Positions 17,352-54,445 are shown, counted from the stretch's first letter. The stretch is DNA of 64,000 bases from a bacterium (GCA_963674595.2 CAXXFV010000027.1:128001-192000); one strand, 5' to 3'. Notes: generated by a model not told the origin, from the sequence alone. Program-made: numbers and translations.

Positions 17352-19677
17352 TTACTGTAAATGAAAAGATAAGACTGTTTTTATGTTCCGACCCATGGCC
17401 TGGATGTATGAGCCATAGGGTTGATATTCCAGATTAAACATATTACAAATTACCAATTGTAGTTTTGGTGAACCCGGTAATGAGTTGGCCTTGATGCCAC
17501 AGGCAAGATGCCACACCACATGTGAGTCGGAAGGTATGTATCCCCAAGGTCCGCCTTCACTTCCCTCTGGAACTTCGGAAACTCTATCCTGAGAAGCCGC
17601 ATATTCACATTGTATTTTCATGGAATAACCCGTGATATAATAGCGGTTGAAAAGGCCGTGATATTTTAGTTCACCGGTTAATTTAAACGGCGGCACACCA
17701 AAAAGAGGCACATTATCCCCATCCTTTGACAGATCTACGCCATAGACATGGGAGCTGCCCAAACCGACATACAAGGTATTAGCCGGATGAAGTATATTAT
17801 CAAACCGGTATGAGGCGGACAATTCTCCGCCTCTAATGACCGCATCGGTATTGGTATAGGTAAAATCCACGGATTCATGTTCAGTATCAGCCGTTTCATT
17901 GATATAATCTTGTAAACGGTTATAAAACAAGGCCAGATCATAAATAAATCGATCTTTATTCGTATGGCCCCGTAACCCAATATCTATATTAAAACTGTAT
18001 TCGGGCTGCAAATCGGGATTTCCGGCTTTGGTGCCCTTGCAACTGATCACCTCGGTAAACAACTCTTCGGCGGTAGGCATACGAAACGCCCTCCCCAAAT
18101 TTAAAGAAAACCTGTGATTGCTCTTCCAGGCATAAACCAGTCCCATATTGCCGCTTAACGCATCTCTGTCTTCATGTCGTTCCACCAGATTTTTGCCGGT
18201 TCCTTCGTCCCACAGTTGCCACATCATAACGCAGCCCCGCAATAACGCGCAGCCGGTTTGTGATGTCCAATGCGTCGTTGAAAAAACACACCCCGGTTTT
18301 TTTGTCCCGCGTTCTCATAACCTGCCACAGTTCCTTGTGTAGCATAATAATAATCGATTACGTCCGAAGGATTATCCAGCATAAAGAAATAACCATCCAA
18401 TCCTATGGTCATTGTGTTGCTTGGTCCAAATTTAAAATTAGCATAAAGTCGTGCGCCACCGTATTGATCCTTATAATGCACCAAATCAAGGGAAGTAGCT
18501 ATGCCGGAAACCGTACTGTATTTTGTTTTATAATAATCCCGTGTACCCGAATCATAATAAGCATTAAACTGAACTACAATCCACCCATGAACCGGGTGAA
18601 TAAGTATAGGAAAAATCGGAATGATTACGTTCCTCTTTATTTCGTATTTCGGTAAAAGCTTTGGTCGGGCCGTTAAAACCTCTTGGTTTTCCCCAATCTC
18701 CTTCATGATAGTCTGCATGAACCATGATTTTGTGACGGGAATTTATCTTAATACCTGTCGTAATGTCCAGATCGCGGTCCTCCACATCACTGTTTTCAGC
18801 AGAATGTCCCGTCACCATATTTAAAAGAATCGGTCTTTCGCCACTTTCCATGAATCATTATGCCATATTTTTCTTTTTGATAGCACGCGTTGGCGGTTTC
18901 GAGAAATTCATTATTATTACTTCCAAATCGGAAACCACACTCAAACGCGATCCCGGACGCCCCCAGGGTTCCTGACTGATTAAATTAATGATCCCTGATA
19001 TAGCACCGCTTCCGTATATGACAGATCCCCGGACCTTTTATAATCTCAACCTTTTGCGCACCGTAAATGTTCATATCCTGGCCAAAGTAACCGCCCGGAA
19101 AGGTCCCGATGCGCCTGTTTCCGTTTTTCATTACCAAAAGCCGTTTGGAGTTCATGCCCCGCAATAACAGAGGCGAATGGTATTCCCAAACCTGTGTAAA
19201 TCCAGGTTTAGTTGCCAGCATATCTGTCATATTGGATTGCATGTGCTCCACCAGTTGCCGGCGTTCAATAATCATCGCAGATTTGGCCAGGGTCTGAACA
19301 GGCTGTTCATAAAGTGACGCAGAAATAATTACATTTGGGAATTCCAAAACTTTGGGTTTTAAATCTACCCTCAACTTTTCTTCATTAAAAGGTTTAGTAA
19401 ATATTTTGGTCTTTTTTTGATAACCTACATGAGAAAATATCAAGTTTATTGTCCGATCATCCTGTATTTTAATCCTGAATATACCGCTTGAATCTGTTAC
19501 AGTTCCGCTGGACAAGTTTCTAACGCTTACATTGACATAGGGAATGGCATACCCGGTTTCAGAATCGCTAACACGACCGGTCACTTCAATGGCTGCTTCA
19601 GCATGATGAGGGATTAAAAGATTTATTAATCCAATCATACTGATAAGAAATATCATATATCTATCGTAAAAGTTCAT
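17352..19677 (-). pseudogene. TonB-dependent receptor (probably heme/iron), split by multiple frameshifts (true pseudogene or assembly indels)
   Basis: Fragments: signal peptide plus carboxypeptidase-like domain, plug (LRGM..KVEIIKGPG then SVIYGSGAISGIINLI in a shifted frame), barrel (GRAFRMPTAEELF, GNPDLQPE, NMFN..Y..MGRN); at least four frame changes. Confidence 0.85.
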
Positions 19678-21008: not shown

Positions 21009-22262
21009 TTAAAAACTATATTTTGCTTTAATCCAAAATTCACGATTGTCATTGTATTGGCCGAACATGCCTTTATCACCTGAGAACCAATCGATACCAG
21101 TCGAAAGATGTAGTTCATCCGTCAGGGCATAGGTTAAGCTGCTGCGGTCAAAAAAATCACCATGATTCATGCCGATATAGGCAAATGTGTTAATTGTTAA
21201 TGTTTCTCTTAAAAACTTTCTGGAGACATTCCATGTCGAAAACACAGTATGCTCCTTGTCGGACATGATCTCCCTATGGTCCGGGATAAACGTATCCGTC
21301 AATTGAGCACTGAGCGTCCAGTTATTTCCCGGATACCAGTCTACCCCCAGCAGCCACTTCCATATATTTCTATCGAACAAATCGCCGGGTAAACTCTCAG
21401 TTTTAATTTTCTTACCCATAAAGAGAGCTGATTCTCCCCGGACAACAAATGCATTTTTAGGAATTGAAAAAGCGCCACCGATAAATGCAAGACGATGATG
21501 TTCTTTTCGCATATAAACCTGGTTATCCGTAACATCCATTATGCGATAAACAGGAAATTTGTCCCATGTATAAAGCCCGGACAAGGAAAAATCAATTCCG
21601 GATAAATAAAAAGAAATTTTTCCGCCAATCTCACTGCTCTTAAAAGTGTTTTCAGGTTCAAGAGAGGTTTTATAAATTATATCCATATCTTCCGGCAAAT
21701 CGCTTTCCACCACCCAGGGGTTGCCTGTTTCCGGTAATATGGCTGATTGAAAAGTAGGCAGCCAAATCAGTTCTAAAGTTGCTTTATTCATTAAACCCCT
21801 AATTTTAAACGCATCCACCGGAATACGAATGTCATCGTAATCCCTTGCCAGGAATTCCGTATAATCCATAGGAGAAATCATATCGGTTATTTGAACACCA
21901 TCGGCCTTTCCCCAAACCACAATCTGGCGGCCAATACGCATATCCCAATGATCAGCACCATATTCCATATAAGCCTCTCTAAGCTCTACGCCGCTTTGCG
22001 ATTTAAGAACATTATTTTGGATGGCATTCATCGAAAAAAAAGCCAATCCAATATCATTTTCGGCAAACATTTCCAAACGTACCCGATTTCGGGAACTCAA
22101 ATATTCATTGGGCGCGTGGACCTGAATAGCGTGATAAGAATCCACAAAACCTCGAACAGTGTATTGAGCTTGTACCGGATGCGGAAACAACATATACATG
22201 AACAGTAAAACAAAAGTTTGGTACGCCAAACTTTTTATGTAAAAAAAGGGTGGTCTTTTCAT
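21009..22262 (-). CDS. DUF1302-like outer-membrane beta-barrel protein
   Basis: Signal peptide; LREAYMEY..RIGRQIVVWGKADG..D motif; C-terminal KYSF. Confidence 0.75.
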   Translation of the reverse strand: MKRPPFFYIKSLAYQTFVLLFMYMLFPHPVQAQYTVRGFVDSYHAIQVHAPNEYLSSRNRVRLEMFAENDIGLAFFSMNAIQNNVLKSQSGVELREAYMEYGADHWDMRIGRQIVVWGKADGVQITDMISPMDYTEFLARDYDDIRIPVDAFKIRGLMNKATLELIWLPTFQSAILPETGNPWVVESDLPEDMDIIYKTSLEPENTFKSSEIGGKISFYLSGIDFSLSGLYTWDKFPVYRIMDVTDNQVYMRKEHHRLAFIGGAFSIPKNAFVVRGESALFMGKKIKTESLPGDLFDRNIWKWLLGVDWYPGNNWTLSAQLTDTFIPDHREIMSDKEHTVFSTWNVSRKFLRETLTINTFAYIGMNHGDFFDRSSLTYALTDELHLSTGIDWFSGDKGMFGQYNDNREFWIKAKYSF

Positions 22263-23044
22263 TTAATTTTCCCGCGTTCCAAATTAGCTACATGAAAGAT
22301 ATTATCCTGAATACCCAAATCGTAATCTACTTTTTCCAGCTCTAATATGGTTTGGTGTTTTTCTTGAAGATTATTCATCTCCCACCTAAAAATTGTCCAA
22401 AATCCCTGCGTTTCCCGAACATCTGGACAGGTTAAAACCTTGAGTAGATCACCGTTCTTATTATAATATTCAATTTTGAATGCAGTATACGAGTCCTGCC
22501 GAATCCAGTGAATAACCTTTGAGTACATATAATCTTTATCTTTCGGAGTTGATTCTACAATCCAGCACAAATATCCTTCTATGGATTCTTCCTTTAAGAG
22601 TTTATGAACATCTTCATCTACAGACCGGTCGCCCATGTCATCATAAGTAAAATCCGATCCCATGAAATAATCATTCTTTGATGAACCGGAAATACGCCTC
22701 ACTTTTTTAAGGGCCGGCAAATAAAGCCAACGGTCATCTTCTTTTGATGCATCCTTATATTCCCACGAAAGAAATCCGGTGCCCTTAACATCGGCGGGCT
22801 TTTGGAAATACATCAATGTTTTAGTGTCCTGACCATAGTCCTTGGAGTAAGACAAAACCGTTCTCTCCCTTGTATGTCCCCGCTTGTTGATCAGCGTCAT
22901 GTGCATCAAAGTTTGGCGGTCATCCCCGTCCGGTCGTTGATCAACTTTTTCCATAATATCTCGTCCAGATAAAATTTGACCTGATGCAATTGCAGCATTA
23001 AACAAGACAAATAATAACAATGTATAACATTTTAAATTTTTCAT
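22259..23044 (-). CDS. Outer membrane lipoprotein-sorting protein (LolA-like)
   Basis: FQKPADVKGTGFL, DDRWLYLPALKKVRRIS, FMGSDFTYDD. Confidence 0.88.
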   Translation of the reverse strand: MKNLKCYTLLLFVLFNAAIASGQILSGRDIMEKVDQRPDGDDRQTLMHMTLINKRGHTRERTVLSYSKDYGQDTKTLMYFQKPADVKGTGFLSWEYKDASKEDDRWLYLPALKKVRRISGSSKNDYFMGSDFTYDDMGDRSVDEDVHKLLKEESIEGYLCWIVESTPKDKDYMYSKVIHWIRQDSYTAFKIEYYNKNGDLLKVLTCPDVRETQGFWTIFRWEMNNLQEKHQTILELEKVDYDLGIQDNIFHVANLERGKIK

Positions 23045-23111
23045 AATAGGCTCCTGTGTTGGAGTATCAATATAAAATCCGACATACCTCCTTTAACCCG
23101 GTTCCAACCTA

Positions 23112-23157
23112 AGAAGCCGAAATGTTGCCGGGATTATTCCGACAACATCCGGCTTTT
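23112..23157 (-). promoter_or_regulatory. Long hairpin in the 5' leader of the iron-uptake operon (attenuator/terminator-like)
   Basis: Minus strand AAGCCGGATGTTGTCGGA-ataa-TCCCGGCAACATTTCGGCTT; flanked by complementary CCTCCTTTA / TAAAGGAGG. Confidence 0.5.
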
Positions 23158-23559
23158 ATAAAGGAGGAATTATTGACCAAATTTATGGCCAATATCAACA
23201 CTATCAATTTTTTGTACATACAGTCATTTGCCATTTAAAACGACCGGTACAACCTGCAACAGCTTTCTGAGATTGATTATAAAAAATGTAATCCAATGAT
23301 AATGGTATCAAAAGAGTAATAAATAGTGCTTCCCAATCATTCCTAAATTTACATCCTATAATCTACAGTATAATAGAATGGTTTTCCATAAAGCTGTTTA
23401 ATTGATAATTAATTATAAACGGATTAATATAACAAAATGGCAAAACGAAATCTATCGCATGAAGTAATGATTTTTATATAATTGTATAGTTAAAAATAGG
23501 GATAAAAGGGGCTGTTATAACTGTTGATTTTTATAATCCGTGCCCATAAAGTATAAATT

Positions 23560-23770
23560 CTGATCGAATTATAAAAAGAAACCAGTTAAAAGGGCTACAC
23601 ATAATTAATGACAAAGATTGTGTTACCATTGGAGAACTGTCAATATATATGAGAATAGCCAGAGGTACATGGTACAATTGTGTTAGTAACGGAAAAAATT
23701 CCACATACTAAAAAAGTGAGGATTAAAATTTAACAGAGAATAAATAGATAACTAGTTATAATCAAAAAAT
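23560..23770 (+). pseudogene. Degraded excisionase-like (HTH_17) gene
   Basis: Manual translation across shifts: ..NDKDCVTIGELSIYMRIARGTWYNCVSNGK/IPHTKK/GLKFNRE*IDN*L*, matching the Xis pattern with stops and frameshifts. Confidence 0.55.
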
Positions 23771-23896
23771 TTAAATCCGAATGATATCTGGAAATAGATG
23801 ATAAAAAAAAGACTCATAAAGAACTGGTATAAGACCAAAGAGAATTATCTTGATTTTATGCAGTAATTTTATTAAAATTGGTAGCATTAAATCAAA

Positions 23897-23977
23897 AAAC
23901 ACCGAACCAGAATCGTATCCCTCCTGGACGGAAGATTTGGAGGTGATACAAAAGGTGATACAGTCGATGAAAAGTGA
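23897..23977 (+). mobile_element. C-terminal relic of a tyrosine integrase with arm-type direct repeats
   Basis: KHRTRIVSLLDGRFGGDTKGDTVDEK*; direct repeat AGGTGATACA at 23941 and 23953; 40 nt upstream of the tRNA. Confidence 0.45.
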
Positions 23978-24017
23978 AAATAATTTGCAACCATAACTCA
24001 AGTAATAATAAATTATT

Positions 24018-24091
24018 GCCCCTGTAGCTCAGTAGGATAGAGCAACGGTTTCCTAAACCGTGGGCCGTGCGTTCGAATCGCGCCAGGGGCA
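24018..24091 (+). tRNA. tRNA-Arg (anticodon CCT)
   Basis: Full cloverleaf: acceptor GCCCCTG/CAGGGGC, D stem GCTC/GAGC, anticodon arm ACGGT-ttCCTaa-ACCGT, T arm GTGCG-TTCGAAT-CGCGC; CCA not encoded. Confidence 0.97.
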
Positions 24092-24098
24092 CAAAAAT

Positions 24099-24130
24099 AA
24101 AGGCAGTTTATTCTCAAGCTGCCTTTTTTT
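24099..24130 (+). terminator. Rho-independent terminator after tRNA-Arg
   Basis: AAAGGCAG/CTGCCTTT stem plus T-tract. Confidence 0.75.
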
Positions 24131-25279: not shown

Positions 25280-25337
25280 AGAGAGAATGCTCATACTTGA
25301 ACTATCATCTGTGTATTATAATATTTTCAAAAAACTC

Positions 25338-25518
25338 TTGCACTGTTTTAAATAATATGTATAATTGTTTTATCAGTAATTAAGGTTTATTTTTGCAGAA
25401 AAATGGGTAAACTCGGGAATTTTTGAAAATCTTTTACTGATTAACCAAATATGAATATGGGAACCAAAAGCGCCAACCAGGAACATATTGTGTCGGAATT
25501 TAAATTATATTCCTGTTG
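25338..25518 (+). promoter_or_regulatory. Promoter plus conserved structured leader, copy 1 of 3 (candidate cis-regulatory RNA)
   Basis: TTGCAC-16-TATAAT, then ATCAGTAA/TTACTGAT stem; aligns with 43886-44064 and 51803-51984. Confidence 0.6.
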
Positions 25519-25765
25519 TCACGCCGATAATATTATTAGATTGGGCAGAGAATACCCAATTGATAGAAAAATACATGACCATCAATATTTTTCGGAAAAA
25601 CCATAGTTAGTACAACCAACTATGTTATTAACTGTTAAACATGATATAAACTAATAATAGGACACAGACCCCATTTACTAACATTCAACTTTAATATCAA
25701 TGTATTGTAATGGTTGTCTTTTAAAAGACAACTCAAATAATAACATTAATTTATTGGAGGTTGAA

Positions 25766-26173
25766 ATGCCAAGTATTAAAATTAAAAAATTTTCTATTTC
25801 TGTCCCCACGAATAGTAAAATTAACGTTAATGTCGAGTTTGATATTACACAAACAGACACTGAAAAGCGTTTAGAGATTCCAGGCAAAGTATTCTTTCAT
25901 TTAATGGAATGGGATGGTTCTTATAAAGATACCATGAATTTAACAGCAGATGGAAGTTATCTGCGAACAGGTGAACAAGATGATGATATAGCCGCCTTTT
26001 ACAAATACGCAGGTATGTTTACATCAGGAACATATAAATTTACTTTTAGTGTAGATAAAAGTCATTTACCAGGAGAATGGGGGAATGAAGAATGGTACGT
26101 TATCGGAGAATGTACAGCCGATGTAATAGATTCTCTCACGTATTCAAAGCATCTAAGTCTCAATCTCGCTTAA
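25766..26173 (+). CDS. Hypothetical protein (135 aa)
   Basis: GGAGG RBS before ATG 25766; followed by hairpin AGCGGGAG/CTCCCGCT; no family recognised. Confidence 0.7.
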   Translation: MPSIKIKKFSISVPTNSKINVNVEFDITQTDTEKRLEIPGKVFFHLMEWDGSYKDTMNLTADGSYLRTGEQDDDIAAFYKYAGMFTSGTYKFTFSVDKSHLPGEWGNEEWYVIGECTADVIDSLTYSKHLSLNLA

Positions 26174-26322
26174 AAAAGTCATAATTTTATTATGTTTTAT
26201 GTCAGCGGGAGCGATACTCTCCCGCTCATTAAATAAAAGAGTATAAAAAAAGATGTCTGGGAATAAACGTTTTTTTATTAAAATAAATACCTGATACTTG
26301 ATTCTTTAATAGTGATATCGAC

Positions 26323-28287
26323 ATGAAAAAAAATGAATATCTAATTTTTGTAATGTTAATTTGTTTGATTCTGCTCCCTGTTTACAGCCAATCAACCGAT
26401 TTACTCAAGCAATCAAATTATTCTCCTTATTTGAGAGGTCAAAGTATTAAATCAATCCCATCCGATTTTCAGGCAACAAGCTGGTTTGAAAAACAATTGG
26501 ATTGGGTTGACGGACGGTTTTCACAGGGTTTGGCTTATGACGGCGCCTATTGGTATTTTTCAGAAAAAGATGGCCTTTATAAAACAGATGAAAATTATAA
26601 TATGCTTTTGGAGGTTACCGGTAACCAAAATCCAATTCCGGACTCTCTCAGGGCCGAGGGTTTTCATCACATCGGGGATATAGCCTGTTTTCAGGGAAAT
26701 ATTTATGCTCCGATTGAAGAACCTACCTATACAAAACCGGTGATTATTACTTTTGATGCAGACAGCCTAAAATACACGGGTTTTTGTGTGCAAGTCCCGC
26801 AAGCTCATTTCCCCTGGATTGCCGCTGATCCGAATACTGGTCTTTTTTATTCATCTGAATTTAGTAACGCAGACCGCATATTTGTCTATGATTCAAACCA
26901 AAATTTCGCCCTTGTTGATCAGATAATGTTGAGCTCCCCGGTGGACCGCGTTCAGGGCGGCGCTGTTTTGGACAGCCTTTTGTATCTTTCCTGTGATAAT
27001 GGTGATTATGTGTATAGTATGGATATAGCGACCGGTACGGTGAATTCTTTGTTCAGTGTACTGTATTTACCGGAAATGGAAGGAATTGAGGCCTGTAAAC
27101 TTCCGTCCGGATTATTGCATTTTATTGCTGAAACCGGTCTGTCGCAAAATCTATTTTATCATTACGATCAACCTTTACCGGATGATATAAAATTAAGTGC
27201 CGTTTTGCTGCCGGAACCTGAAATGCCGATTTTTAGAAAATTTAATCCGCAAATAGTTTTGCAAAACGTTGGTATGAATGTCGGGCAAAATATCAATGTA
27301 ACTTGTATAATAGATAATAATAGTGTTGAAATTTACAGGGACACTCAAATTGTATCCGATGTGGAAAGCTTTGCAGAAATAGCAGTTGTGTTCAAAGACT
27401 GGTCACCAACAGAAATCGCCACATATAATTTTACTTTTATCAGCCAAATGGCAAACGATATGAATGCACTCAATGATACGTTACGCGTTACAATGGATGC
27501 GGGAAATATCGTTGAAAATTTCAATGCCGGTACAACAAATTGGGTCCTGGAGGGAAATTGGGTCCGATTGTTGGGAAAAGATTATACCTGGGGTATTGCA
27601 ACAATGCCCCGACCCTATCAAAACAATATGAACGCAATTCTATCTTACCTCCCCTCCTTTGATTTTTCGACCATTACTTTTCCGGATTCGATTGGGCTGA
27701 GTTTCTGGATGCGATATTGGCTTGAAAGCGGCAAAGATTTCTGTTATCTAGAAGTTAGTTCAGACAGCGTTTCATGGCAGACCGTGGCCGATTTTACAGG
27801 CATTACAAGTTCCTGGGAACAAAAATTTGTGTCTTTAAATGATTTTACAGGTCCCGGATATAATAACGTGCAAATCAGGTTTCGATTCGTGTCTGATTCG
27901 CTGGGTACGGACGAAGGCATTAACTTGGATGATATACAAATTTATATAGCACAACGTTCTGCAGCCGTTGAGAAACGGCCGGATAAAAATGTTATACCTG
28001 ATGGTATAGCACTCTATCAAAATTATCCGAATCCGTTTAATCCAAGTACGGTTATTGAATACGAACTGCACTCGGGTTCAGGTCCATGTGATATAACGTT
28101 GGAGATTTTTAATATTTTAGGCGAACGGATAAAAACGTTTCGATCTGTACAGAATCCCGGTAAATACAGCTTCACCTGGGACGGTGTGGACAATTATGGC
28201 AACAGCGTTCCGAGCGGTGTTTATTATTATCGCATAAGAACGGATTTTGAATATACTTCGTTGCAAAAAATGTTATTGATGAAATGA
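26323..28287 (+). CDS. Secreted protein: beta-propeller-like N-terminus, Ig/CARDB-like and jelly-roll domains, C-terminal FlgD-Ig/T9SS-type domain
   Basis: Signal peptide; LESGKDFCYLEVS..QIRFRFVSD..GINLDDI; LYQNYPNPFNPST..WDGVDNYGNSVPSGVYYY. Confidence 0.78.
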   Translation: MKKNEYLIFVMLICLILLPVYSQSTDLLKQSNYSPYLRGQSIKSIPSDFQATSWFEKQLDWVDGRFSQGLAYDGAYWYFSEKDGLYKTDENYNMLLEVTGNQNPIPDSLRAEGFHHIGDIACFQGNIYAPIEEPTYTKPVIITFDADSLKYTGFCVQVPQAHFPWIAADPNTGLFYSSEFSNADRIFVYDSNQNFALVDQIMLSSPVDRVQGGAVLDSLLYLSCDNGDYVYSMDIATGTVNSLFSVLYLPEMEGIEACKLPSGLLHFIAETGLSQNLFYHYDQPLPDDIKLSAVLLPEPEMPIFRKFNPQIVLQNVGMNVGQNINVTCIIDNNSVEIYRDTQIVSDVESFAEIAVVFKDWSPTEIATYNFTFISQMANDMNALNDTLRVTMDAGNIVENFNAGTTNWVLEGNWVRLLGKDYTWGIATMPRPYQNNMNAILSYLPSFDFSTITFPDSIGLSFWMRYWLESGKDFCYLEVSSDSVSWQTVADFTGITSSWEQKFVSLNDFTGPGYNNVQIRFRFVSDSLGTDEGINLDDIQIYIAQRSAAVEKRPDKNVIPDGIALYQNYPNPFNPSTVIEYELHSGSGPCDITLEIFNILGERIKTFRSVQNPGKYSFTWDGVDNYGNSVPSGVYYYRIRTDFEYTSLQKMLLMK

Positions 28288-28314
28288 TTTATCCTTGGCA
28301 ATAACAGGGAATGG

Positions 28315-28815
28315 CACATACCATTTCCATTACCGTAGGGACAGCCCCCTGTGTCTGTCCTGGTATCGGGCAATTTATTGGGCAATCACAGGGGATTGCC
28401 CCTACAATATAGGGCAATTTATCGGGCAATCACAGGGGATTGCCCCTACAAAATCGGGTAATCACGGATAATCACACATACCATTTCCATTACCGTAGGG
28501 ACAGACCCCTGTGTCTGTCCTGGTATCGGGCAATTTATCGGGCAATCATAGGGGATTGCCCCTACAAAATCGGGTAATCAAAGATAATCACACATACCAT
28601 TTCCATTACCGTAGGGACAGACCCCCGTGTCTGTCCTGGTATCGGGCAATTTATCGGGCAATCATAGGGGATTGCCCCTACAAAATCGGGTAATCAAAGA
28701 TAATCACACATGCCATTTCCATTACCGTAGGGACAGACCCCCTGTGTCTGTCCTGGAATCGGGCAATTTGTCGGGCAATCACAGGGGATTGCCCCTACAA
28801 TATCGGGTAATCACA
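28315..28815. repeat. BIME-like array of GTAG-type REP palindromes (116-bp period)
   Basis: GTAGGGACAG..CTGTCC at 28335, 28495, 28611, 28727 paired with five inverted GGGCAATC..GATTGCCCCTAC copies; linkers nearly identical. Confidence 0.85.
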
Positions 28816-33551: not shown

Positions 33552-35282
33552 ATGAAGAAATTATTATCAGGAAATGAAGCAATAGCCAGAGGCGCTTATG
33601 AAGCGGGTGTAAAAATAGCAGCCGCCTATCCGGGGACTCCCAGTACGGAAATATTGGAAAATATTTCTAAATACAAGGAAATAAATTCAGAATGGTCTGT
33701 AAATGAAAAAGTAGCTTTTGAAGTGGCTTTTGGAGGAGCGCTTGCCGGATCAAGGGCGCTTGCTGCCATGAAGCATGTCGGCGTTAACGTCGCTTCCGAC
33801 GCGCTGATGACAGCCGCCTATACAGGTGTTAACAGTGGATTTGTCCTTGTTACGGCAGATGACCCGGGAATGCACAGTTCACAAAACGAGCAGGATAACA
33901 GATATTTTGCCAAGATGGCAAAAATTCCCATGTTGGAGCCTTCAGACAGCCAGGAGGCCAAAGATTTTACCAGGCTGGCCCTGGAGATAAGCGAACAATA
34001 TGATACACCGGTATTGCTTCGTGTAACAACCCGAATTTGCCACGGTAAAGGTGTTGTTGACATAGACGAAAGAAAAGAATCTGAATCATATAAATATGAA
34101 AAAAATCCACAAAAATATGTCATGATTCCGGCATACGCCAGAAAACGAAAAATAGTTATTGAAAAACGTTTACAGGATCTTGCAGAATTCAGCGAATCCG
34201 TTGCCATAAACAGGATAGAAATTTCCGATCCTGATGTCGGCTTTATTACCAGCGGAATCAGCCATCAATATACCAAAGAAGTTTTCCCAAATGCTTCGTA
34301 TTTTAAACTTGGTATGACCTATCCCCTGCCGATGCAGGCAATTAAAAAATTTGTTGATTCGGTTAAAACAGTTTATGTCATAGAAGAGCTTGAGCCTTTC
34401 ATTGAAGAACAGCTTTTGGCGGCCGGCATTAAAGTATTGGGCAAATCGGTCTTACCCAATGACGGAGAACTTTCCGCAGAAATTTTACGCGAAAAAATAT
34501 TAAACAAACCGGTTGAAATATCTGTCCCTGTAACCAACGATCTTCCGGCACGACCGCCTGTTATGTGCGCGGGCTGCCCTCACAGAAAAGTATTTCACGT
34601 CCTTAAAAAACTGAAAGCCACGATCAGCGGCGATATTGGCTGCTATACGCTAAGTTCCCTCCCACCATTGGAAACGATGGATACATGTATTTGTATGGGC
34701 GGAAGTATCGGCGTGGCCCAGGGATTATCCAAAGTTTTACAAAAAGAATCAAACAAACCCATTGTCGGTGTGCTGGGCGATTCCACTTTTTTCCATTCCG
34801 GTATTCCAAGCCTGGTAAATGCCGTGTATAATAAAACAAATGTGACTATTATTATACTCGATAACCGTATTACGGCAATGACAGGTCATCAGGACAATCC
34901 GGGAACAGGCAAAACATTATCCGGCGAAGAAACAAAAAAAATAGATTTTAAAGCATTGGCCCTTGCCTGCGGTGTTGAACATGTTGCGATGATCAATCTT
35001 GAAGAAATGAGTGAGATAACAAACGTTATAAAAGAAGCTGTTTCTTTTCCAGGACCTTCTGTTGTGATTGCTCAAAGTCCGTGTGTGCTTATCGATAAAA
35101 AATCGAAAAGAGGTTATAATAAAGTCGATCCTTCAAAATGTACCATGTGCAAAGTTTGCCTGCGAATCGGATGTCCGGCAATCAGCATGGGTAATGAATC
35201 CGTTGTAATTGACCCGTTAATGTGCACCATGTGTAATGCATGTTTGCAGATTTGCCCTTCAGATGCAATTAGTCCGGCTTGA
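33552..35282 (+). CDS. iorA: Indolepyruvate:ferredoxin oxidoreductase alpha subunit
   Basis: LSGNEAIARGA, YPGTPSTEI, MKHVGVNVA, DDPGMHSSQNEQD, CAGCPH, GDIGCY, GDSTFFHSG, C-terminal 2x[4Fe-4S]. Confidence 0.95.
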   Translation: MKKLLSGNEAIARGAYEAGVKIAAAYPGTPSTEILENISKYKEINSEWSVNEKVAFEVAFGGALAGSRALAAMKHVGVNVASDALMTAAYTGVNSGFVLVTADDPGMHSSQNEQDNRYFAKMAKIPMLEPSDSQEAKDFTRLALEISEQYDTPVLLRVTTRICHGKGVVDIDERKESESYKYEKNPQKYVMIPAYARKRKIVIEKRLQDLAEFSESVAINRIEISDPDVGFITSGISHQYTKEVFPNASYFKLGMTYPLPMQAIKKFVDSVKTVYVIEELEPFIEEQLLAAGIKVLGKSVLPNDGELSAEILREKILNKPVEISVPVTNDLPARPPVMCAGCPHRKVFHVLKKLKATISGDIGCYTLSSLPPLETMDTCICMGGSIGVAQGLSKVLQKESNKPIVGVLGDSTFFHSGIPSLVNAVYNKTNVTIIILDNRITAMTGHQDNPGTGKTLSGEETKKIDFKALALACGVEHVAMINLEEMSEITNVIKEAVSFPGPSVVIAQSPCVLIDKKSKRGYNKVDPSKCTMCKVCLRIGCPAISMGNESVVIDPLMCTMCNACLQICPSDAISPA

Positions 35283-35308
35283 TACATTTTAAAAATTTCG
35301 GAGATACA

Positions 35309-35893
35309 ATGAACGATATGGTAAATAAAAATATATTAATTGTAGGTGTAGGCGGACAGGGTATTGTCCTTGTTAGTGAAATTATTGCCAAAGTATGTAT
35401 GACCTATGGATATGATGTTAAACAAAATGAAGTACACGGTATGGCGCAAAGAGGCGGCAGTGTTGTCAGTCATGTTCGTTATGGTAATAAAATCCATTCA
35501 CCCCTGATAGAGGTTGGACAGGCTGATGTACTCCTTTCCTTTGAACTTTTGGAAGCACAGCGATGGCTTTATTATTTAAAAAAAGATGGCATCGCCATTA
35601 TAAACACTCAACAAATCGAACCCATGTCGGTATTAAGCGGTAAAACAACCTACCCTGAAAATATAGAATCACAGATAAAAGACAGCGGCTGCAATGTTAA
35701 ATTTGTAAACGGAACCCAGATTGCCAAAGACGTCAATAATTTACGGTCGGTGAATATATCGCTGATTGGTGCATTGTCAAATGAACTGGAATTTGATGAA
35801 AACTTATGGACGGATGCAATTAAAGGCAGAGTACCGCAAAAAACAATTGAAAGTAATTTAAAAGCCTTTGAATTCGGCAGACAAGCAAAATAA
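35309..35893 (+). CDS. iorB: Indolepyruvate:ferredoxin oxidoreductase beta subunit
   Basis: GVGGQG, EVHGMAQRGGSVVSHVR, NLKAFEFG. Confidence 0.93.
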   Translation: MNDMVNKNILIVGVGGQGIVLVSEIIAKVCMTYGYDVKQNEVHGMAQRGGSVVSHVRYGNKIHSPLIEVGQADVLLSFELLEAQRWLYYLKKDGIAIINTQQIEPMSVLSGKTTYPENIESQIKDSGCNVKFVNGTQIAKDVNNLRSVNISLIGALSNELEFDENLWTDAIKGRVPQKTIESNLKAFEFGRQAK

Positions 35894-35931
35894 TATATCG
35901 CTTACCTTTATAGCGATGGAGGACATGTTCT

Positions 35932-37230
35932 ATGAAAAAATACAAAGTGGATTATTTAGACCAGGAAGAGTTATTAAATCTTCAACAGGAACGACTGCAA
36001 AAAGTAACAAAACATGTCTATGATAATGTTCCCTATTATCAGCAGGTATTTGACAAATTGGGCGCAAAACCTGAAGATTTTAAATCAATGGATAGTCTGA
36101 AACAACTTCCACTGACAGATAAAGAAGTTTTAAGGCAGCACTATCCGTTTGGATTATTTGCTGTTCCCATGTCTGAAGTAAAAGAAATACACGCATCATC
36201 CGGAACAACAGGCAAACCCACTGTTGTCGCCTATACTCAGGGCGATCTTAACGTATGGTCCGAAGTCATGTCACGAAGTATTGCCTGTACAGGCGGCTGT
36301 GAACAAGACATTATTCAAAATGCTTATGGATATGGTTTATTTACCGGCGGACTCGGTGTTCATTACGGCTCTTTGGAATTGGGTTCATCCGTTGTTCCGA
36401 TCTCTTCGGGAGGAACAAAACGACAGCTTCAGATCATGCAGGATTTTGGCACAACCATTATAACCTGTACTCCCTCCTACTCTGTTTATCTTGCTGAACA
36501 GGCTACGGCCCTTGGAATTGATCCACGACACACAACCATTCGAATTGGAATTTTAGGAGCAGAACCATGGAGCGATGGAATGCGTTCCGAAATAGAATCC
36601 TTATGGAATATTAAAGCCTATGACATTTACGGTTTGTCGGAAATAATCGGACCCGGTGTAGCTGTAGAATGTGAAGGCCAGCATGGTCTGCATATTTGGG
36701 CTGACCATTTTTATCCGGAAGTTATTAATCCGGTAACCGGAGAAGCAGTCGGCGAGGGTGAAGATGGTATGCTGGTTATTACTACGCTTACAAAAGAGGC
36801 CACTCCGTTTTTAAGATATGCAACCAAGGACATTGTAAATATTACCTATGAAAAATGTCCTGCCTGTGGACGAACCAGTCCCAGAATCAGCCGGGTAAAA
36901 GGCCGAACAGATGATATGTTGATCATTCGTGGTATTAACGTATTTCCGTCTCAAATAGAATCCGTTTTAATGGAAATTGAAGAAACAGACCCACATTATC
37001 AACTCATTGTCAGCCGGGAAGGCGCCCTGGATAAACTCGAAGTTCAGGTTGAAGTAAACGACAAATTTTTCTCAGATGAGATTCGAAAATTGGAAGCATT
37101 GGAAAATCGAATTAGGAAAGAAATTGAAAACGTACTGTCAATTGCTGTAAAAGTTAAGCTGGTTGAGCCGCTAACAATCACTCGCAGCGAAGGTAAAGCA
37201 AAACGTGTTATAGACACACGACAGATATAA
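35932..37230 (+). CDS. paaK: Phenylacetate-CoA ligase family
   Basis: [51 protein letters not shown]. Confidence 0.92.
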   Translation: MKKYKVDYLDQEELLNLQQERLQKVTKHVYDNVPYYQQVFDKLGAKPEDFKSMDSLKQLPLTDKEVLRQHYPFGLFAVPMSEVKEIHASSGTTGKPTVVAYTQGDLNVWSEVMSRSIACTGGCEQDIIQNAYGYGLFTGGLGVHYGSLELGSSVVPISSGGTKRQLQIMQDFGTTIITCTPSYSVYLAEQATALGIDPRHTTIRIGILGAEPWSDGMRSEIESLWNIKAYDIYGLSEIIGPGVAVECEGQHGLHIWADHFYPEVINPVTGEAVGEGEDGMLVITTLTKEATPFLRYATKDIVNITYEKCPACGRTSPRISRVKGRTDDMLIIRGINVFPSQIESVLMEIEETDPHYQLIVSREGALDKLEVQVEVNDKFFSDEIRKLEALENRIRKEIENVLSIAVKVKLVEPLTITRSEGKAKRVIDTRQI

Positions 37231-37320
37231 TTCGATGATAAAATAATTTTCGTTTTTAATCAATAATTATTACGGCTAAACTCCAAATTTGATCCTAATT
37301 ACCAAAGCAAGGAGTACAAA

Positions 37321-37752
37321 ATGAATATTAAACAAATTTCGGTTTTTTTAGAAAATCGTCCGGGACGGTTGGAAGAAATAACACATGTTTTATCAACAGG
37401 CGGTATCAACATTCGTGCGTTGTCACTGGCAGATACATCCGATTTTGGAATTCTCAGATTAATTGTTAACGATCCTGATAAAGCAATAAAACTGCTTAAA
37501 GAAGCAACATTTACCGTAAGAGAAAACGATGTGATAGCTGTAGAGATTGATGACAAACCAGGCGGTCTTTCTAAATTGCTGGGTATATTCAGCAAAGCCA
37601 GTATAAGTATAGAGTACATGTATGCATTTTTTGAGAAAAAAATTGATAAAGCTATTATGATAATTCGTGTGGAAGCAACGGCAAAGGCGTTAAAATCGCT
37701 TAAAGACGCTGGTGTTCCGCTTTTACGAAGCAGTGAAATCTATGAAATGTAA
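37321..37752 (+). CDS. ACT domain protein (tandem ACT)
   Basis: KQISVFLENRPGRL, INIRALSLADTSDFGILRLIV, IEYMYAF. Confidence 0.92.
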   Translation: MNIKQISVFLENRPGRLEEITHVLSTGGINIRALSLADTSDFGILRLIVNDPDKAIKLLKEATFTVRENDVIAVEIDDKPGGLSKLLGIFSKASISIEYMYAFFEKKIDKAIMIIRVEATAKALKSLKDAGVPLLRSSEIYEM

Positions 37753-37782
37753 AATGATAACCAAAATCTGAGGAATAGAACA

Positions 37783-39093
37783 GTGACTGCGCGAATATGG
37801 GACCCAGAATTTGAGACGATGCCCAAGGACCGACTTGATAAACTTCAACTGAAACGATTGCAGAATGTTGTCGAATATGCTTATGAAAAAGTGCCGTTTT
37901 ATAAGGATATTTTTACAAAAAACAATATTTCACACCAGGATATAAAAACGCTGGATCATTTACAAGACCTGCCGTTTACAACCAAGGCTGATCTGCAGGC
38001 AAGCTATCCCTATGGCATGTTTGCTGTACCGCTGTCGGATGTTGTCCGCATTCATTCCTCATCCGGGACAACCGGACAACCGACTGTTGTCGGGTATACC
38101 AGGAATGATTTGAATAACTGGACGGAGCTTATCGCCCGCTTATTAACGGCCGGCGGTGTAACAAAAAACGATATAGTTCAAATATGTTTCGGTTATGGAT
38201 TGTTTACAGGCGGATTTGGTTTACATTATGGCGTTGAGAGGGTCGGCGCAACCGTCATTCCTATTTCATCAGGCAATACCTCACGCCAAATGATGGTGAT
38301 GAAAGACTACCGGACCACGGCTATTGTTTGCACACCAAGCTATTCACTCTATCTTGCCGAATGTTTGCAAGAAGCCAAAATTGATCTCAATGATTTGCAG
38401 TTACGCACCGGTTTGTTTGGCGGCGAACCGTGGAGTGAAAATATGCGCACTGAAATAGAAAGCCGGTTAGGGATAAGTGCCACAGACAACTATGGTCTCA
38501 GCGAAGTTATGGGCCCCGGGGTTTCCATGGAATGCCTTGAGAAAAAAGGAATGCACATTTGTGAAGATCATTTTATTGCGGAAATTATCGATCCTGATAC
38601 TTGTCAGGTTTTACCCTATGGTGAAGTCGGTGAATTGGTCATTACAACAATCACCAAAGAGGCAATTCCTGTTATTCGTTACAGAACACGCGATATTACC
38701 CGATTAATTAAAGAACCCTGTGCCTGCGGCCGTACATTGGTTCGAATGGAGAAACCTCATGGCAGAACAGATGATATGCTGATCATCCGGGGCGTTAATG
38801 TATTCCCGTCACAAATTGAAACGGTACTTGTTGAAATGGACGAAACTGATCCGCATTACCAGCTTTTTATTAAAAGAGAAGGCGTGTTGGATACACTGGA
38901 AGTCCATGTGGAAATTAATGAAAAGTTTTTTGTTGATGAAATGAGAAGAATGAAAGAAATCGAACAAAAAATCTATAATCGTATAAAAAGTACCCTTGGA
39001 TTGTCGGTGAAACTGAAACTGGTGGAACCGAAATCACTTGTGCGAACAGAAGGAAAAGCAAAAAGAGTTTTTGATTTACGCCAAAAGAACTAG
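37783..39093 (+). CDS. paaK: Phenylacetate-CoA ligase family (second paralog)
   Basis: [51 protein letters not shown]; GTG start. Confidence 0.92.
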
Positions 39094-39139
39094 TACTCTA
39101 CAACTAACAGATGATGGTTACAAAAACGAAAGGTAGGAG

Positions 39140-40165
39140 ATGATGAAATTCCGGGCTCTTCAATGTACAGTATTGTTTGTATCTCTTTTAACTTTAATGT
39201 TCTTAAATTTGAATTGCGGCAAAGGCGGAAACAAAGGAACAATTGAACTGTCCTACAGCATCTTTTTTCCACCAACACACATTCAATGTAAAACAGCTAT
39301 GGACTGGGCAAAGGAAATAGAAACCCGCACAAATGGTCGTGTTAAAATTTCAGTTTTTCCGGGCGGCACTCTCACAAAAGCACCACAGGTTTATGACGGG
39401 GTAGTTAATGGCATATCAGACATTGGTATGAGCTGTTTTGCTTATACGCGCGGTAGATTTCCACTATTAGAAGGATTGGATTTACCTCTGGGTTATCCTG
39501 ACGGGAAAACCGCCACAAAAATTGCCACTCAAATGGTGCAAAAATACAATCCGGAAGAAATTCAACAAACAAAAGTTATGTATATTCATGCTCACGGTCC
39601 CGGTATTTTGGCCAGCAAAAAGAAAGTAAGTACAATTGACGATATTAAAGGCATGAAAATCAGAGGAACCGGATTGTCATCAAAAATAATCCAGAGTCTT
39701 GGCGGTAATCCCATCGGCATGAGTCAACCGGAAACCTATGAAGCCCTGCAAAAAGGTGTTGTTGACGCTACATTTTGCCCGATTGAAACGTTAAAGGGAT
39801 GGAAACAGGGTGAAGTGATCAATTACGTTGTTGATACTTCTGTTATCGGTTATACAACTTCGATGTTTGTTGTTATGAATAAAGACAAATGGGAAAAACT
39901 TCCAAAAAACATTCAGGAAATTTTTAACAAAGTTAATGAAGAATGGGTCGTAAAACACGGTGAAGCCTGGGACCTGGCTGACGAAGAAGGTAAAAAATTT
40001 GTGCAGGAACTCGAGGTAGAGACAATAAAATTAAATCCTGCTGAATATCCGCAATGGGAAAAAGCCGTAAGTCCCATATTGGAAGACTATATTGCCACAG
40101 CAAAAGAAAAAGGTCTGGACGGACAGGCATTTCTTAACGATATAAAATCTTTGATGAACATATAA
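39140..40165 (+). CDS. dctP: TRAP transporter substrate-binding protein
   Basis: [33 protein letters not shown]; lipoprotein-like N-terminus. Confidence 0.9.
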
Positions 40166-40177
40166 AAACAGATCATT

Positions 40178-40705
40178 ATGGTTGAAAAAAATCAGAAAAA
40201 CTATTCTCTAAAAACAGTTCAAACAGCCTATGTTGCAGCTTTAAAAAAGACTGTTATGCTGCTTGCGCTTATTTCCGGTTTAAGTGTATTTTTAATGATG
40301 CTTGTTACAACGGTAGATGTTATTTTGAGGATTTTTGGCATTTCATTTATCGGTGCTTTTGATATTGTTACAATCGCCGGCGCTATTGCCATATCGGCAG
40401 CATTGCCCTACACCACCGCTGTTAAAGGGCATGTCGCCATCGAATATTTTTTTCAAAAATTTTCAAAATGGGGGCGCATCGTCGTTGATACCATTGCGCG
40501 CATCTTGTCAGTGACTTTATTTACGCTGCTTGCCTGGCACAGTATTAAGTATGGCAACAGTATGTTAAAAAGCGGTGAGGTAACATCGACTTTACAAATA
40601 CCGTTGTTCTGGGTACCGTTTATGATCGCTGTTTCCTGCTTTTTGGTTGTTTTGGTGATTATTTATCATATCGTACATCCCGGAAAGGAGCTGCTGAAAC
40701 CATGA
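40178..40705 (+). CDS. dctQ: TRAP transporter small permease
   Basis: 4 TM; DVILR, GHVAIEYF; between dctP and dctM. Confidence 0.88.
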   Translation: MVEKNQKNYSLKTVQTAYVAALKKTVMLLALISGLSVFLMMLVTTVDVILRIFGISFIGAFDIVTIAGAIAISAALPYTTAVKGHVAIEYFFQKFSKWGRIVVDTIARILSVTLFTLLAWHSIKYGNSMLKSGEVTSTLQIPLFWVPFMIAVSCFLVVLVIIYHIVHPGKELLKP

Positions 40706-42003
40706 CACCTGTTCAGATCGGAATTCTGGGTTGTATTTTATTATTAGTTTTGCTTATCAGCAGCATGCCCATTGCTTTTGTAATGGCGGTTGTCGGACTG
40801 ATCGGTTTTGCAGTCGTTGTTACACCGCATGCTGCCATGAGCATGATTACAACAGACCTTTTTTCAACATTTTCATCCTATAGTTTAACTGTTATACCGT
40901 TATTTATTTTTATGGGGCAACTGGCTTTTCATTCCGGTATCAGTAGACGGCTGTTTAACGCAGCTTACAAGTGGTTGGGCGCTTTACCCGGAGGACTGGC
41001 TATGGCGACAATCGGTGCTTGTGCAGGATTTGGAGCTATATGTGGTTCAGGACCGGCAACTGCCGCTACAATGGCTGCCGTGGCGCTCCCTGAAATGAAA
41101 CGTTATAACTATGATGTTGAACTTGGAAGCGGCGCTGTTGCCGCCGGCGGCAGTTTGGGAATGCTAATTCCTCCCAGTGTTGTTTTTATTGTTTACGCTA
41201 TTATGACGGAACAGTCCATAGGGAAACTTTTTCTTGCCGGCATAATCCCCGGTATACTAATCGCTACCATCTTTTGCTTAACAATTTACTTGAACTGTAT
41301 CTCAAGAAAACATCTGGGTCCCCCTGGAAAAAAAACAAGCTTTGTGGAAAAAATAAAATCCCTGAAATTCATTTTCGATACCCTTGTATTATTTTTGCTG
41401 GTAATGGGCGGAATGTTTCTTGGTTTCTTTACTCCGACAGAAGCAGCCGCTATTGGCGCTGCCGGTACATTGCTGATTGCTGTTATAAAAAAACAAATTA
41501 GTATTAAAATGATCATGCAATCACTTCGGGAAACGGTCAGAACTTCTTGTATGGTCATGACAATTGTTGCCGGTGCTGTTATGCTGGGACATTTTTTGGC
41601 GATCACACAAATTCCGTTCCATTTGGCGAACTGGCTCGCCAATTTGCCTTTACCGGGATGGATTATCGTGGCTTTTATTATTGGCTTTTATTTTATCAGC
41701 GGTTGTTTTGTTGATGCTCTTGCATTAATCCTGCTGACAATTCCCATTTTTTATCCGGTCATTACAGAGCTTGGTTACGACCCTATCTGGTTCGGTGTCA
41801 TTATTGTTGTCGTGACTCAAATGGGCGTCATTTCACCGCCTGTCGGCGTGAATGTATATGTCGTGTGCGGGATAGAAAGAGACGTTCCGCTGCAAACTGT
41901 TTTCAAAGGGGCACTGCCCTTTTTACTGGCCCTTATTATTTCTGCCATTATTCTCGTAGCATTTCCTCAGCTATCATTAATATTGCCAAATTTGGTTCAT
42001 TAG
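40702..42003 (+). CDS. dctM: TRAP transporter large permease
   Basis: IPLFIFMG, GSLGMLIPPS, SIGKLFLAGIIPG, DPIWFG, SPPVG. Confidence 0.92.
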   Translation: MTPVQIGILGCILLLVLLISSMPIAFVMAVVGLIGFAVVVTPHAAMSMITTDLFSTFSSYSLTVIPLFIFMGQLAFHSGISRRLFNAAYKWLGALPGGLAMATIGACAGFGAICGSGPATAATMAAVALPEMKRYNYDVELGSGAVAAGGSLGMLIPPSVVFIVYAIMTEQSIGKLFLAGIIPGILIATIFCLTIYLNCISRKHLGPPGKKTSFVEKIKSLKFIFDTLVLFLLVMGGMFLGFFTPTEAAAIGAAGTLLIAVIKKQISIKMIMQSLRETVRTSCMVMTIVAGAVMLGHFLAITQIPFHLANWLANLPLPGWIIVAFIIGFYFISGCFVDALALILLTIPIFYPVITELGYDPIWFGVIIVVVTQMGVISPPVGVNVYVVCGIERDVPLQTVFKGALPFLLALIISAIILVAFPQLSLILPNLVH

Positions 42004-43807: not shown

Positions 43808-43885
43808 TCTATTTCATTCACTACTCTATTTTATTTAATCTTTAACCTGGGGCAGCCAAAAATTTAATATTTTTTAAAATTCATC

Positions 43886-44064
43886 TTGCGTAGATTTTAT
43901 TTAATTCGTAATATTCTATTGTCAGGCGTAACAGGTTGTTTTCAGAATGGTTGGGAAATTGTGGGATATTTCGAAAAAAACCTGACTGACTTTCCATTTT
44001 TTAAATACGGGATTGACGGTATAAACGAAGAGATTGCATTGGATTCATTGCCATATTGCTGTTG
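43886..44064 (+). promoter_or_regulatory. Promoter plus conserved structured leader, copy 2 of 3
   Basis: TTGCGT-17-TAATAT, then GTCAG/CTGAC and CAGGTT/AACCTG stems; aligns with the other two copies. Confidence 0.6.
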
Positions 44065-44208
44065 GTTTACACGTCTGATTATATAATTTATAAACATTCT
44101 TTTAATAAATTTGGGTTTTTGTATTTATAGCGGTTGCTGATTTTTGTCAAATTGTATTAGAGGACATTGTTGTAAAATCTAAAAATTTTGAGCGATAAAG
44201 GAAATACT

Positions 44209-51717: not shown

Positions 51718-51802
51718 ATAATTTATTAAAAGCAATAGTTGCTTCCCTCCTGCTGTTCCAGTTTGCCTGCTGAAATATATCACAATTTATTTTAAAAAAA
51801 CC

Positions 51803-51984
51803 TTGCACTGATTTTATTTAATTTGTAATATTAAAATGTCAGTGCTAACGAATTGTTTTCAGAACGGTTGGGAGTATGCGGGCGATTCTGAAATCTGTTT
51901 TTGCTGATTTTCCATCTTAAAAATATGGGCACCAAACAAACACGAGGAAGAGATTGAACCGGGACGTAAATCACATTCCTGTTG
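51803..51984 (+). promoter_or_regulatory. Promoter plus conserved structured leader, copy 3 of 3
   Basis: TTGCAC-17-TAATAT, then GTCAGTG/TGCTGAT and TTTCAGAA/TTCTGAAA stems; aligns with the other two copies. Confidence 0.6.
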
Positions 51985-52083
51985 TTAATCCACCAAACCT
52001 TATTTGGCTGGGAAAAGTACGTTCTGTTGTGGGAAAAATTCCAGTTAATTAAATCTGTTTTTATCTATTTCGGGAGACATGAC

Positions 52084-52335: not shown

Positions 52336-52398
52336 AAGAATAAAGTTTCTAAAAACTTTCAAACTATGTTACCATCCTGTTCATACTCAGAGGTGCCT

Positions 52399-54429: not shown

Positions 54430-54445
54430 TCAATGGGGATGCCAT

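Follow-up and report, generated by a model that had tools for sequence, protein, structure and literature searches.

The 5'-terminal stem-loops of the ompA and papA transcripts protect mRNA from decay that depends on the 5' end, and the 5' untranslated region (UTR) of ompA is about 130 nt long. Such terminal stem-loops, together with the polypurine or Shine-Dalgarno (SD)-like sequences that act as 5' stabilisers, are well established (cited in the review PMC3997798). A different precedent comes from putative mobile promoters, which are promoter-bearing intergenic segments found in similar form before non-homologous genes (Nijveen, Matus-Garcia and van Passel 2012, PMC3575422); that study adds that RNA motifs can travel with them. 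In Bacteroides, a further study describes a nascent RNA hairpin that assists the recruitment of UpxY at opsX leaders (PMC11685472). Here, we focus on an element that can be compared with all of these systems. It was noticed in a 64,000-nt stretch of bacterial DNA (GCA_963674595.2 CAXXFV010000027.1:128001-192000, hereafter the window), where it occurs in three + strand copies at about 25325-25561, 43874-44065 and 51789-52039.

Over some 200 bases, each copy joins a promoter-like 5' part to a non-coding sequence that starts with a hairpin and stands, in the sense orientation, upstream of genes. The comparison is based on three sequences from one genome and one 64-kb window. The element is probably a shared leader for expression or regulation, and nothing found in it shows a riboswitch. 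Our tentative preference, as the most economical reading, is for a reused promoter-plus-leader module, with a 5'-terminal hairpin of the stabiliser type and a single-stranded recognition segment.

A hairpin conserved on the sense strand in three homologous copies

The initial annotation described three diverged copies that align over about 145 nt, and this was borne out by direct reading, by a MAFFT alignment and by single-sequence searches. Over the promoter-like part and about 147 putatively transcribed nucleotides, mean column identity is 76-77%, with 65 of 150 columns invariant. Because a profile made from the copies matches them by construction, each copy was also searched singly against the window with nhmmer. 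Copy 3 was found by copy 1 (E 2.6e-15) and by copy 2 (E 4e-16), and it recovered both in return (2.4e-10 for copy 1 and 3.2e-14 for copy 2). Copies 1 and 2 are only weakly alike when compared directly (E 3.4e-3 and 0.12), so that copy 3 is the bridge of the family. It also looks mosaic. In 30-column windows, its promoter-like part and the first half of its hairpin lie near copy 2 (68-86%), while everything from the linker onwards lies near copy 1 (56-73%), a pattern that suggests exchange among the copies by recombination. All three are homologous from 50-60 nt before the predicted +1 to near +150, and copies 1 and 3 stay alike further, to about +190-200. No fourth copy was found in the window, either by profile nhmmer (--max) or by a filter-free covariance model search, where the next best matches have E values of 0.2 and 0.26. 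The term RNA family, used at the outset, fits three paralogues in one window, with nothing proven beyond those three.

The 5' part has the same order in every copy: an A/T-rich tract, TTGC(A/G)(C/T), a spacer of 16-17 nt and TATAAT or TAATAT. In copy 1, the A/T-rich tract (25317-25337, +) lies upstream of the -35 hexamer, forms the 5' limit of homology and resembles what we take to be the UP element consensus. It is followed by TTGCAC-16-TATAAT (25338-25365, +; predicted +1 at 25372). The corresponding segments are TTGCGT-17-TAATAT in copy 2 (43886-43914, +; predicted +1 at 43921) and TTGCAC-17-TAATAT in copy 3 (51803-51831, +; predicted +1 at 51838). Direct reading confirmed in all three copies the spacing first reported, with the -10 box 7 nt before the first stem and TTGC(A/G)(C/T) 16-17 nt upstream of that box. 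The first base of this stem is a purine in each case, six bases lying between it and the -10 box. From these features we infer a promoter and a transcription start. Directly 5' of copy 1, a perfect 10-bp stem with a T-run ends the rhaM (rhamnose mutarotase) gene. Copy 1 therefore cannot be the 3' UTR of rhaM, and we count this arrangement in support of its independent transcription.

No mobile-element features were found at the three copies. A miniature inverted-repeat transposable element, whose copies would be placed randomly with respect to gene starts, was rejected: no inverted repeat at the borders is common to the three copies, and all of them lie in sense upstream of genes, yet every gene between 24 and 59 kb is on the + strand. 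An inverton was likewise rejected for lack of flanking inverted repeats common to the copies. Copy 1 alone has a 25-nt imperfect repeat (80% complementary) that carries its first stem into the -10 region, and no such repeat exists in copies 2 and 3.

The same long, irregular hairpin of about 70 nt is predicted by RNAfold in all three copies. In copy 1 (25372-25441, +) it consists of P1 (ATCAGTAA/TTACTGAT), P2 (AAGGTTT/AAATCTT) and P3 (CAGAAA/TTTTTG), closed by the loop TGGG-N7-GGG, with a z-score of -1.50. Copy 2 (43921-43990, +; z -1.11) has GTCAG/CTGAC as P1, CAGGTT/AACCTG as P2 and a P3 with one A-C mismatch, and the copy 3 hairpin spans 51838-51908 (+; z -1.73). The parts listed in the initial annotation (P1 of the form RTCAG/CTGAY, the inner stems of copies 1 and 2, a stem containing CAGAA and the TGGG-N7-GGG loop) are all present. 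Aligned together, the three hairpins give a consensus fold (alifold) of -8.87 kcal/mol, with a structure conservation index (SCI) of 0.57 and a z-score of -3.9, and none of 500 column shuffles was as good. When the consensus fold was repeated on the + strand, z was -3.46 and 4 of 300 shuffles were as good. The reverse complement of the hairpin region reaches only -0.48 kcal/mol (z -0.33), and an RNA from the minus strand is ruled out because its sequence does not fold. Ten of the cells counted in the pair table are G-U, in keeping with this specificity for the + strand.

That table holds 19 pairs and thus 57 cells across the three copies, of which 93% are paired. Eight pairs are invariant, five changed on one side and six changed on both, in agreement with the compensatory changes that had been proposed for the stems. 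When the 3' partners were slid by 1-3 columns as a control, 33-55% of the cells were paired and zero to two pairs were altered on both sides. Compared directly, copies 1 and 2 can hardly be recognised as related any more, and with such divergence 93% pairing is hard to explain without selection on the RNA. These findings support the conclusion that selection has kept the hairpin paired on the sense strand, and it is the sole feature of the element with positive evidence for selection at the RNA level. A pseudoknot proposed between the loop UGGG and the CCA after P1 involves invariant bases, to which covariation cannot speak.

Downstream of the hairpin, the sequence is conserved in a different manner. 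Copy 1 continues with a linker (25442-25480, +) that contains an invariant CCA and AATATGGG and has no conserved structure, and then with an ungapped 38-nt block, GAA.A.ATTG-N4-GG-N10-A.ATT.CTGTTG (25481-25518, +), which is predicted to be single-stranded. Linker and block occupy 43991-44064 in copy 2 (+; block 44027-44064) and 51909-51984 in copy 3 (+; block 51947-51984). The CCA...AATAYGGG segment and the ungapped block occur in all copies, as first described, and the block is free of indels in every one. Its invariant positions, with up to three mismatches allowed, match three times in the window, where 0.06 matches are expected, and none of 100 shuffles reaches three. Beyond the block, copy 1 has a tail in common with copy 3 only (25519-25575, +; 56-60% identity), which includes the hairpin ATTGGG-N9-CCCAAT with no T-run.

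The 3' half is as conserved as the stems, with 34 of 78 columns invariant compared to 19 of 38, and has no consensus structure (-1.35 kcal/mol, SCI 0.14, z -0.05; 189 of 500 shuffles as good). The single sequences (z +0.72, +1.26 and +0.01) are, if anything, less structured than their shuffles. Four G-runs hold invariant positions (two within the loop of the hairpin and one each in linker and block), and four motifs of the GG(G)A type likewise hold their positions across copies. The conserved, unstructured remainder has the look of a site that a trans-acting factor would recognise.

That no reading frame is conserved, as stated at the outset, was borne out by six-frame translation, in which every frame is stopped in at least one copy and no start is conserved. 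By hand count, the variable sites of the 38-nt block fall evenly on codon positions 1, 2 and 3 (8, 7 and 8), with no third-position excess. A coding element is ruled out by these stops, the unconserved starts and the even variation. The claim that no known riboswitch class is present was checked against Rfam 15 (4227 models). At gathering thresholds, nothing but a tRNA (24018-24091) was found in the whole window, and at E<=10 each copy gave unrelated weak matches, none of them common to the copies; a known Rfam family is thereby ruled out. What the initial annotation had presented is thus, at its core, a non-coding paralogous element in sense upstream of genes, with a promoter-like 5' part and a conserved hairpin, and this description holds.

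Explanations of the element

Under the reading we tentatively prefer, a sigma-70-type promoter with an A/T-rich upstream tract, followed by a 5' leader of about 150 nt, would be an expression module rather than a gene, placed before three or more unrelated transcription units, the majority of them coding for secreted or cell-surface proteins. Transcription is predicted to start precisely at the base of the P1-P2-P3 hairpin, which may shield the 5' end of the mRNA from 5'-end-dependent decay in the manner of ompA and papA. Messages shielded in this way would be long-lived and would be abundant for the downstream genes. The loop UGGG-N7-GGG, together with the unstructured CCA, AAUAYGGG and the 38-nt block, could form a common recognition surface for a trans-acting factor. 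Small RNAs, elongation factors and RNA-binding proteins would all be candidates for this role, and through such a factor the loci would be regulated together. The start of transcription, stabilisation of the mRNA and any binding factor, with its identity, are what we infer.

Several results weigh against this explanation. A sigma-70 scan does not list the three promoters, because their -35 hexamers match TTGACA at three of six positions, and the start site is a predicted one. Conservation in the promoter spacer, a stretch that can usually vary freely, equals that of the leader (79% between copies 2 and 3). The single-sequence z-scores of the hairpins are modest, 13-28 of 200 shuffles folding equally well, and the whole RNAs of about 147 nt fold no better than shuffles (z +0.92, +1.53 and +0.27). 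Shuffled 3' partners reach the observed pair counts in 10-24 of 500 trials, and the structure was derived from the same three sequences on which it was tested, which flatters it. GGA, an excess of which would mark a CsrA/Rsm-type binding leader or sponge, occurs 4, 4 and 3 times per copy compared to 1.7-2.5 in shuffles, with 0.07, 0.21 and 0.49 of the shuffles as high; the enrichment of GGG is non-significant (p 0.05-0.36), and a preferential conservation of G is seen relative to copy 1 only (p 0.011; 0.56 and 0.45 for the others). As the three sequences come from one genome, the 3' half could be conserved through common descent and nothing more. Moreover, no relative was found outside the window among genome contigs, plasmids or phages. 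A scan of genome contigs with a pattern of 18 invariant block positions gave 17 loci in unrelated taxa with one match each, which is about the number estimated for chance, and in nhmmer and cmsearch alignments of these loci the pre-selected block alone matches, the hairpin being deleted or absent. Searches of plasmid and phage collections by blastn gave no match.

A rival reading has a promoter-bearing segment of about 200-250 bp duplicated in front of new genes, whether through recombination or through an unknown mobile mechanism, with the sequence after +1, perhaps save the hairpin, as a passenger that decays neutrally. The non-homologous genes downstream are as described for putative mobile promoters (PMC3575422). 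Identity varies little along the element and does not exceed that of the promoter spacer, the mosaic nature of copy 3 suggests recombination between copies, and the 3' half lacks conserved structure. The hairpin is harder to accommodate, as its pairing is specific to one strand and stands at 93%, with six two-sided changes, although copies 1 and 2 can barely be aligned and the slid controls reach 33-55%. In addition, no terminal inverted repeats are common to the three copies, and the 38-nt block has stayed free of indels in each of them. Promoter reuse of this kind is a lesser possibility, which we regard as unlikely without dismissing it.

We give somewhat less credence to an undescribed class of cis-regulatory leader RNA in a poorly sampled lineage with a type IX secretion system (T9SS). 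In such a class, the G-rich loop of the hairpin and the platform of G-runs would be bound by a dedicated RNA-binding protein or elongation factor, coordinating secreted and surface loci genome-wide. The data are compatible with this idea, since the hairpin appears to be under selection, the G-runs are fixed in position and Rfam has nothing similar. A literature search on T9SS leaders, promoter reuse, terminal stem-loops and RfaH or UpxY leaders found no such leader described, which is weak evidence of absence.

It is doubtful that the element is a recruitment site for an elongation factor, of the ops/JUMPstart-RfaH or opsX-UpxY type. The block would then be read on the non-template DNA or the nascent RNA, with the upstream hairpin acting as a pause hairpin, for processive antitermination through long surface-protein operons. 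A conserved, unstructured leader sequence does occur at several surface-related loci, 99-247 nt from the first start codon, and the block lies downstream of a conserved hairpin; RfaH, for its part, is recruited by a DNA element in the leader (PMC2871177). However, none of the 56 window open reading frames (ORFs) scanned with Pfam encodes a NusG- or KOW-like protein, and none is the first gene after a copy, unlike UpxY. The hairpin is about 40 nt upstream of the block rather than directly behind a pause site, and two of the three units are short, with one or two genes.

A riboswitch, or an attenuator that switches between two folds under control of a ligand or protein, is improbable. The leader is conserved and keeps invariant G-runs both in its large loop and where it is single-stranded, and in the absence of an Rfam match it would be a new class. 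Nevertheless, one helix system alone is conserved. A multi-helix aptamer does not hold up, for the first 70 nt or so carry all of the conserved structure and the 3' half, block included, has none (SCI 0.14), in a test of low power with three sequences. Terminator scans found no intrinsic terminator after the conserved part in any copy. A U-rich stretch follows the hairpin in copies 2 (UUUCCAUUUUUU) and 3 (UUUUCCAUCUU); copy 1 has UAACCAAA at this point, with no U-rich stretch and no terminator listed by the scans. Duplexes with the translation start regions are no stronger than in shuffles, either for the block (fraction as good 0.99, 0.12 and 0.84) or for the loop (0.55, 0.41 and 0.67), and sequestration of the start region by anti-SD or other long-range pairing was rejected on this ground. 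The spacers to the start codon (247, 144 and 99 nt for copies 1, 2 and 3) are unconserved in sequence, and they differ in their folds: two parts of the copy 1 spacer have z-scores of -2.8 and -2.3, while those of copies 2 and 3 are +1.1 and +0.9. The downstream genes have no shared metabolic theme that would hint at a ligand. A single helix system, no common terminator, no pairing with the ribosome-binding site (RBS) and unconserved spacers of 99-247 nt all argue against a classical riboswitch or attenuator. Where the initial annotation had left the choice between a riboswitch, an antitermination RNA and a protein-binding leader, the missing multi-helix core, terminator and RBS pairing tell against that breadth, and a protein-binding leader co-regulating surface-protein loci is the part that is possible.

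Equally improbable are three paralogous small-RNA genes, with trans-acting transcripts of about 150-200 nt whose single-stranded 3' segment serves as seed or protein sponge and with the downstream genes as mere neighbours or reached by read-through: a promoter of their own, a conserved 5' hairpin and unstructured segment, four position-fixed GG(G)A-type motifs, a long unconserved stretch before the next start codon and an extra promoter-like site between the copy 1 element and its gene (25560-25589) would suit them, but no intrinsic terminator follows the conserved part in any copy, the GGA enrichment is non-significant, and the copies lie directly upstream, in sense, of genes that otherwise have no obvious promoter in the gap, as judged with no systematic test.

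If the promoter-plus-leader module is a functional leader, it would single out genes for secreted and surface proteins that are regulated together, in a lineage with little known regulation, and would be a compact natural cassette of promoter and stabiliser. It would also be a clean example of a promoter and leader reused before unrelated genes, with the hairpin kept by compensatory change. If it is confined to its source genome, it would be an ordinary promoter duplication. Its practical value lies in a defined covariance model and exact coordinates for searches genome-wide and across genomes.

Downstream genes and surroundings

The first gene after copy 1 (25766-26173, +) has the SD sequence GGAGG and encodes a protein of 135 aa that lacks an evident signal peptide and belongs to a small uncharacterised family. 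At E<=1e-3 the family counts 28 representatives, mostly of about 134-148 residues, and at E<=1e-10 it counts 12. The conserved motifs are TE.RL.IP, LMERDG..RD and EEWY; no match to Pfam, NCBIfam or PDB sequences was found for the protein. The second gene (26323-28287, +) encodes a protein of 654 aa that carries a signal peptide as well as a T9SS type A C-terminal sorting domain. Copy 2 is followed by the gene for a 673-aa T9SS cargo protein with a He_PIG Ig domain and a Por_Secre_tail (44209-46230, +). After copy 3 there are three genes (52084-56770, +), which encode an 83-aa protein whose N-terminus is hydrophobic (52084-52335, +), a CsgG/LpoB-like protein carrying DUF5683 and five PEGA domains (52366-54429, +), and a protein with PKD and Fib_succ_major domains (54446-56770, +). 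The first genes after the copies are mutually unrelated (E 2.7 and 5.2), and the two T9SS proteins are alike in the C-terminal sorting domain only. The initial description of the downstream genes, as mostly coding for secreted or surface proteins, is roughly right, the 135-aa protein after copy 1 being the case that departs from it. The T9SS domains suggest that the organism belongs to the Fibrobacteres-Chlorobi-Bacteroidetes group.

Further structures lie near copy 1. The region 25519-25650 is unusually structured (z -2.8), and the part of the leader specific to copy 1, at 25676-25775 (+), forms a long hairpin (z -2.3) that pairs the GGAGG SD of the 135-aa gene and takes in a perfect palindrome (25713-25732). 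In the gap between this gene and that for the T9SS-sorted protein, a G+C-rich hairpin of 8 bp with a 7-nt loop and no T-run (26204-26226, +) is no canonical terminator on either strand. A tandem array at 28297-28813 (+) lies between the end of the latter gene (28287) and the next gene (28948). It has 3.5 copies of a 116-nt unit with 95% matches, along with 2.2 copies of a 44-nt sub-repeat. The units exceed the sequence around them in G+C content, GGGCAATC...GATTGCCC within them can form a hairpin, and the array has no Rfam match at gathering thresholds.

Upstream of copy 1, a TonB-dependent receptor gene (17352-19677, -) is apparently split into three ORFs, with CarboxypepD_reg and Plug domains in the first (18985-19677), no Pfam match in the second (18224-18718) and the beta-barrel in the third (17352-18242). 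This could be a pseudogene, or the result of frameshifts or assembly errors. Gene orientation turns from - to + at about 22000-24100, where the cumulative GC skew also has its minimum, and a 970-nt gap ends in tRNA-Arg(CCT) at 24018-24092. A replication origin at this strand switch near 23-24 kb was rejected for lack of a DnaA-box cluster, with 24 matches in the window compared to 23.7 expected and zero in the 970-nt gap. A cluster typical of aromatic amino-acid fermentation is found at 33552-42003 (+). It contains a thiamine pyrophosphate/ferredoxin oxidoreductase pair (IorA/IorB-like), an ACT-domain protein, a tripartite ATP-independent periplasmic transporter (DctP, DctQ and DctM) and two AMP-binding ligases with an AMP-binding_C_2 domain. 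Downstream of the copy 3 locus, the gene for an 810-aa HerA/FtsK-like ATPase (57367-59799, +) has weak PADLOC matches, with mad8 at 4.8e-13 and HerA models down to 2.6e-10.

Comparison with known systems

The sequence family is new to Rfam, but structured 5' leaders on reused promoters are a known kind of element. With the orphan leaders and riboswitches of Rfam 15, the element shares its position upstream of genes and, in its first 70 nt, conserved loop nucleotides and covarying stems. It differs from them in that none of the models matches, and in having neither a multi-helix core nor an expression platform. The Bacillus STAB-SD of cryIIIA and polypurine stabilisers have a parallel in an SD-like AGGAA(G/C) that opens the 38-nt block in copies 1 and 3, far upstream of the start codon. 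However, copy 2 has CGAAG there, and the motif is not conserved.

Like the ops/JUMPstart (RfaH) and opsX (UpxY) elements, the copies are short conserved leader sequences found at several surface-structure loci of one genome, and they are independent of the distance to the first gene. In contrast to those systems, no NusG paralogue is encoded at the loci or elsewhere among the 56 window ORFs scanned, the operons are short and, by eye and with no model comparison, no ops-like sequence was seen. With the putative mobile promoters, the element shares a similar promoter region upstream of non-homologous genes. The groups in PMC3575422 are highly similar, whereas the present copies, at about 50-70% identity, are probably more diverged. 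That they have diverged so strongly and yet kept the hairpin paired points to a long-term function and not to recent copying.

The ompA and papA stabilisers offer a likeness of another sort. There, too, a hairpin (a predicted one in the present case) stands at the first transcribed base and is followed by single-stranded segments in a long 5' UTR, and the genes downstream encode abundant envelope or surface proteins. The element described here has neither sequence similarity to these stabilisers nor a match to an Rfam family. Its hairpin is also larger, with about 70 nt, three helices and a conserved G-rich loop, and the module is repeated before unrelated genes in one genome.

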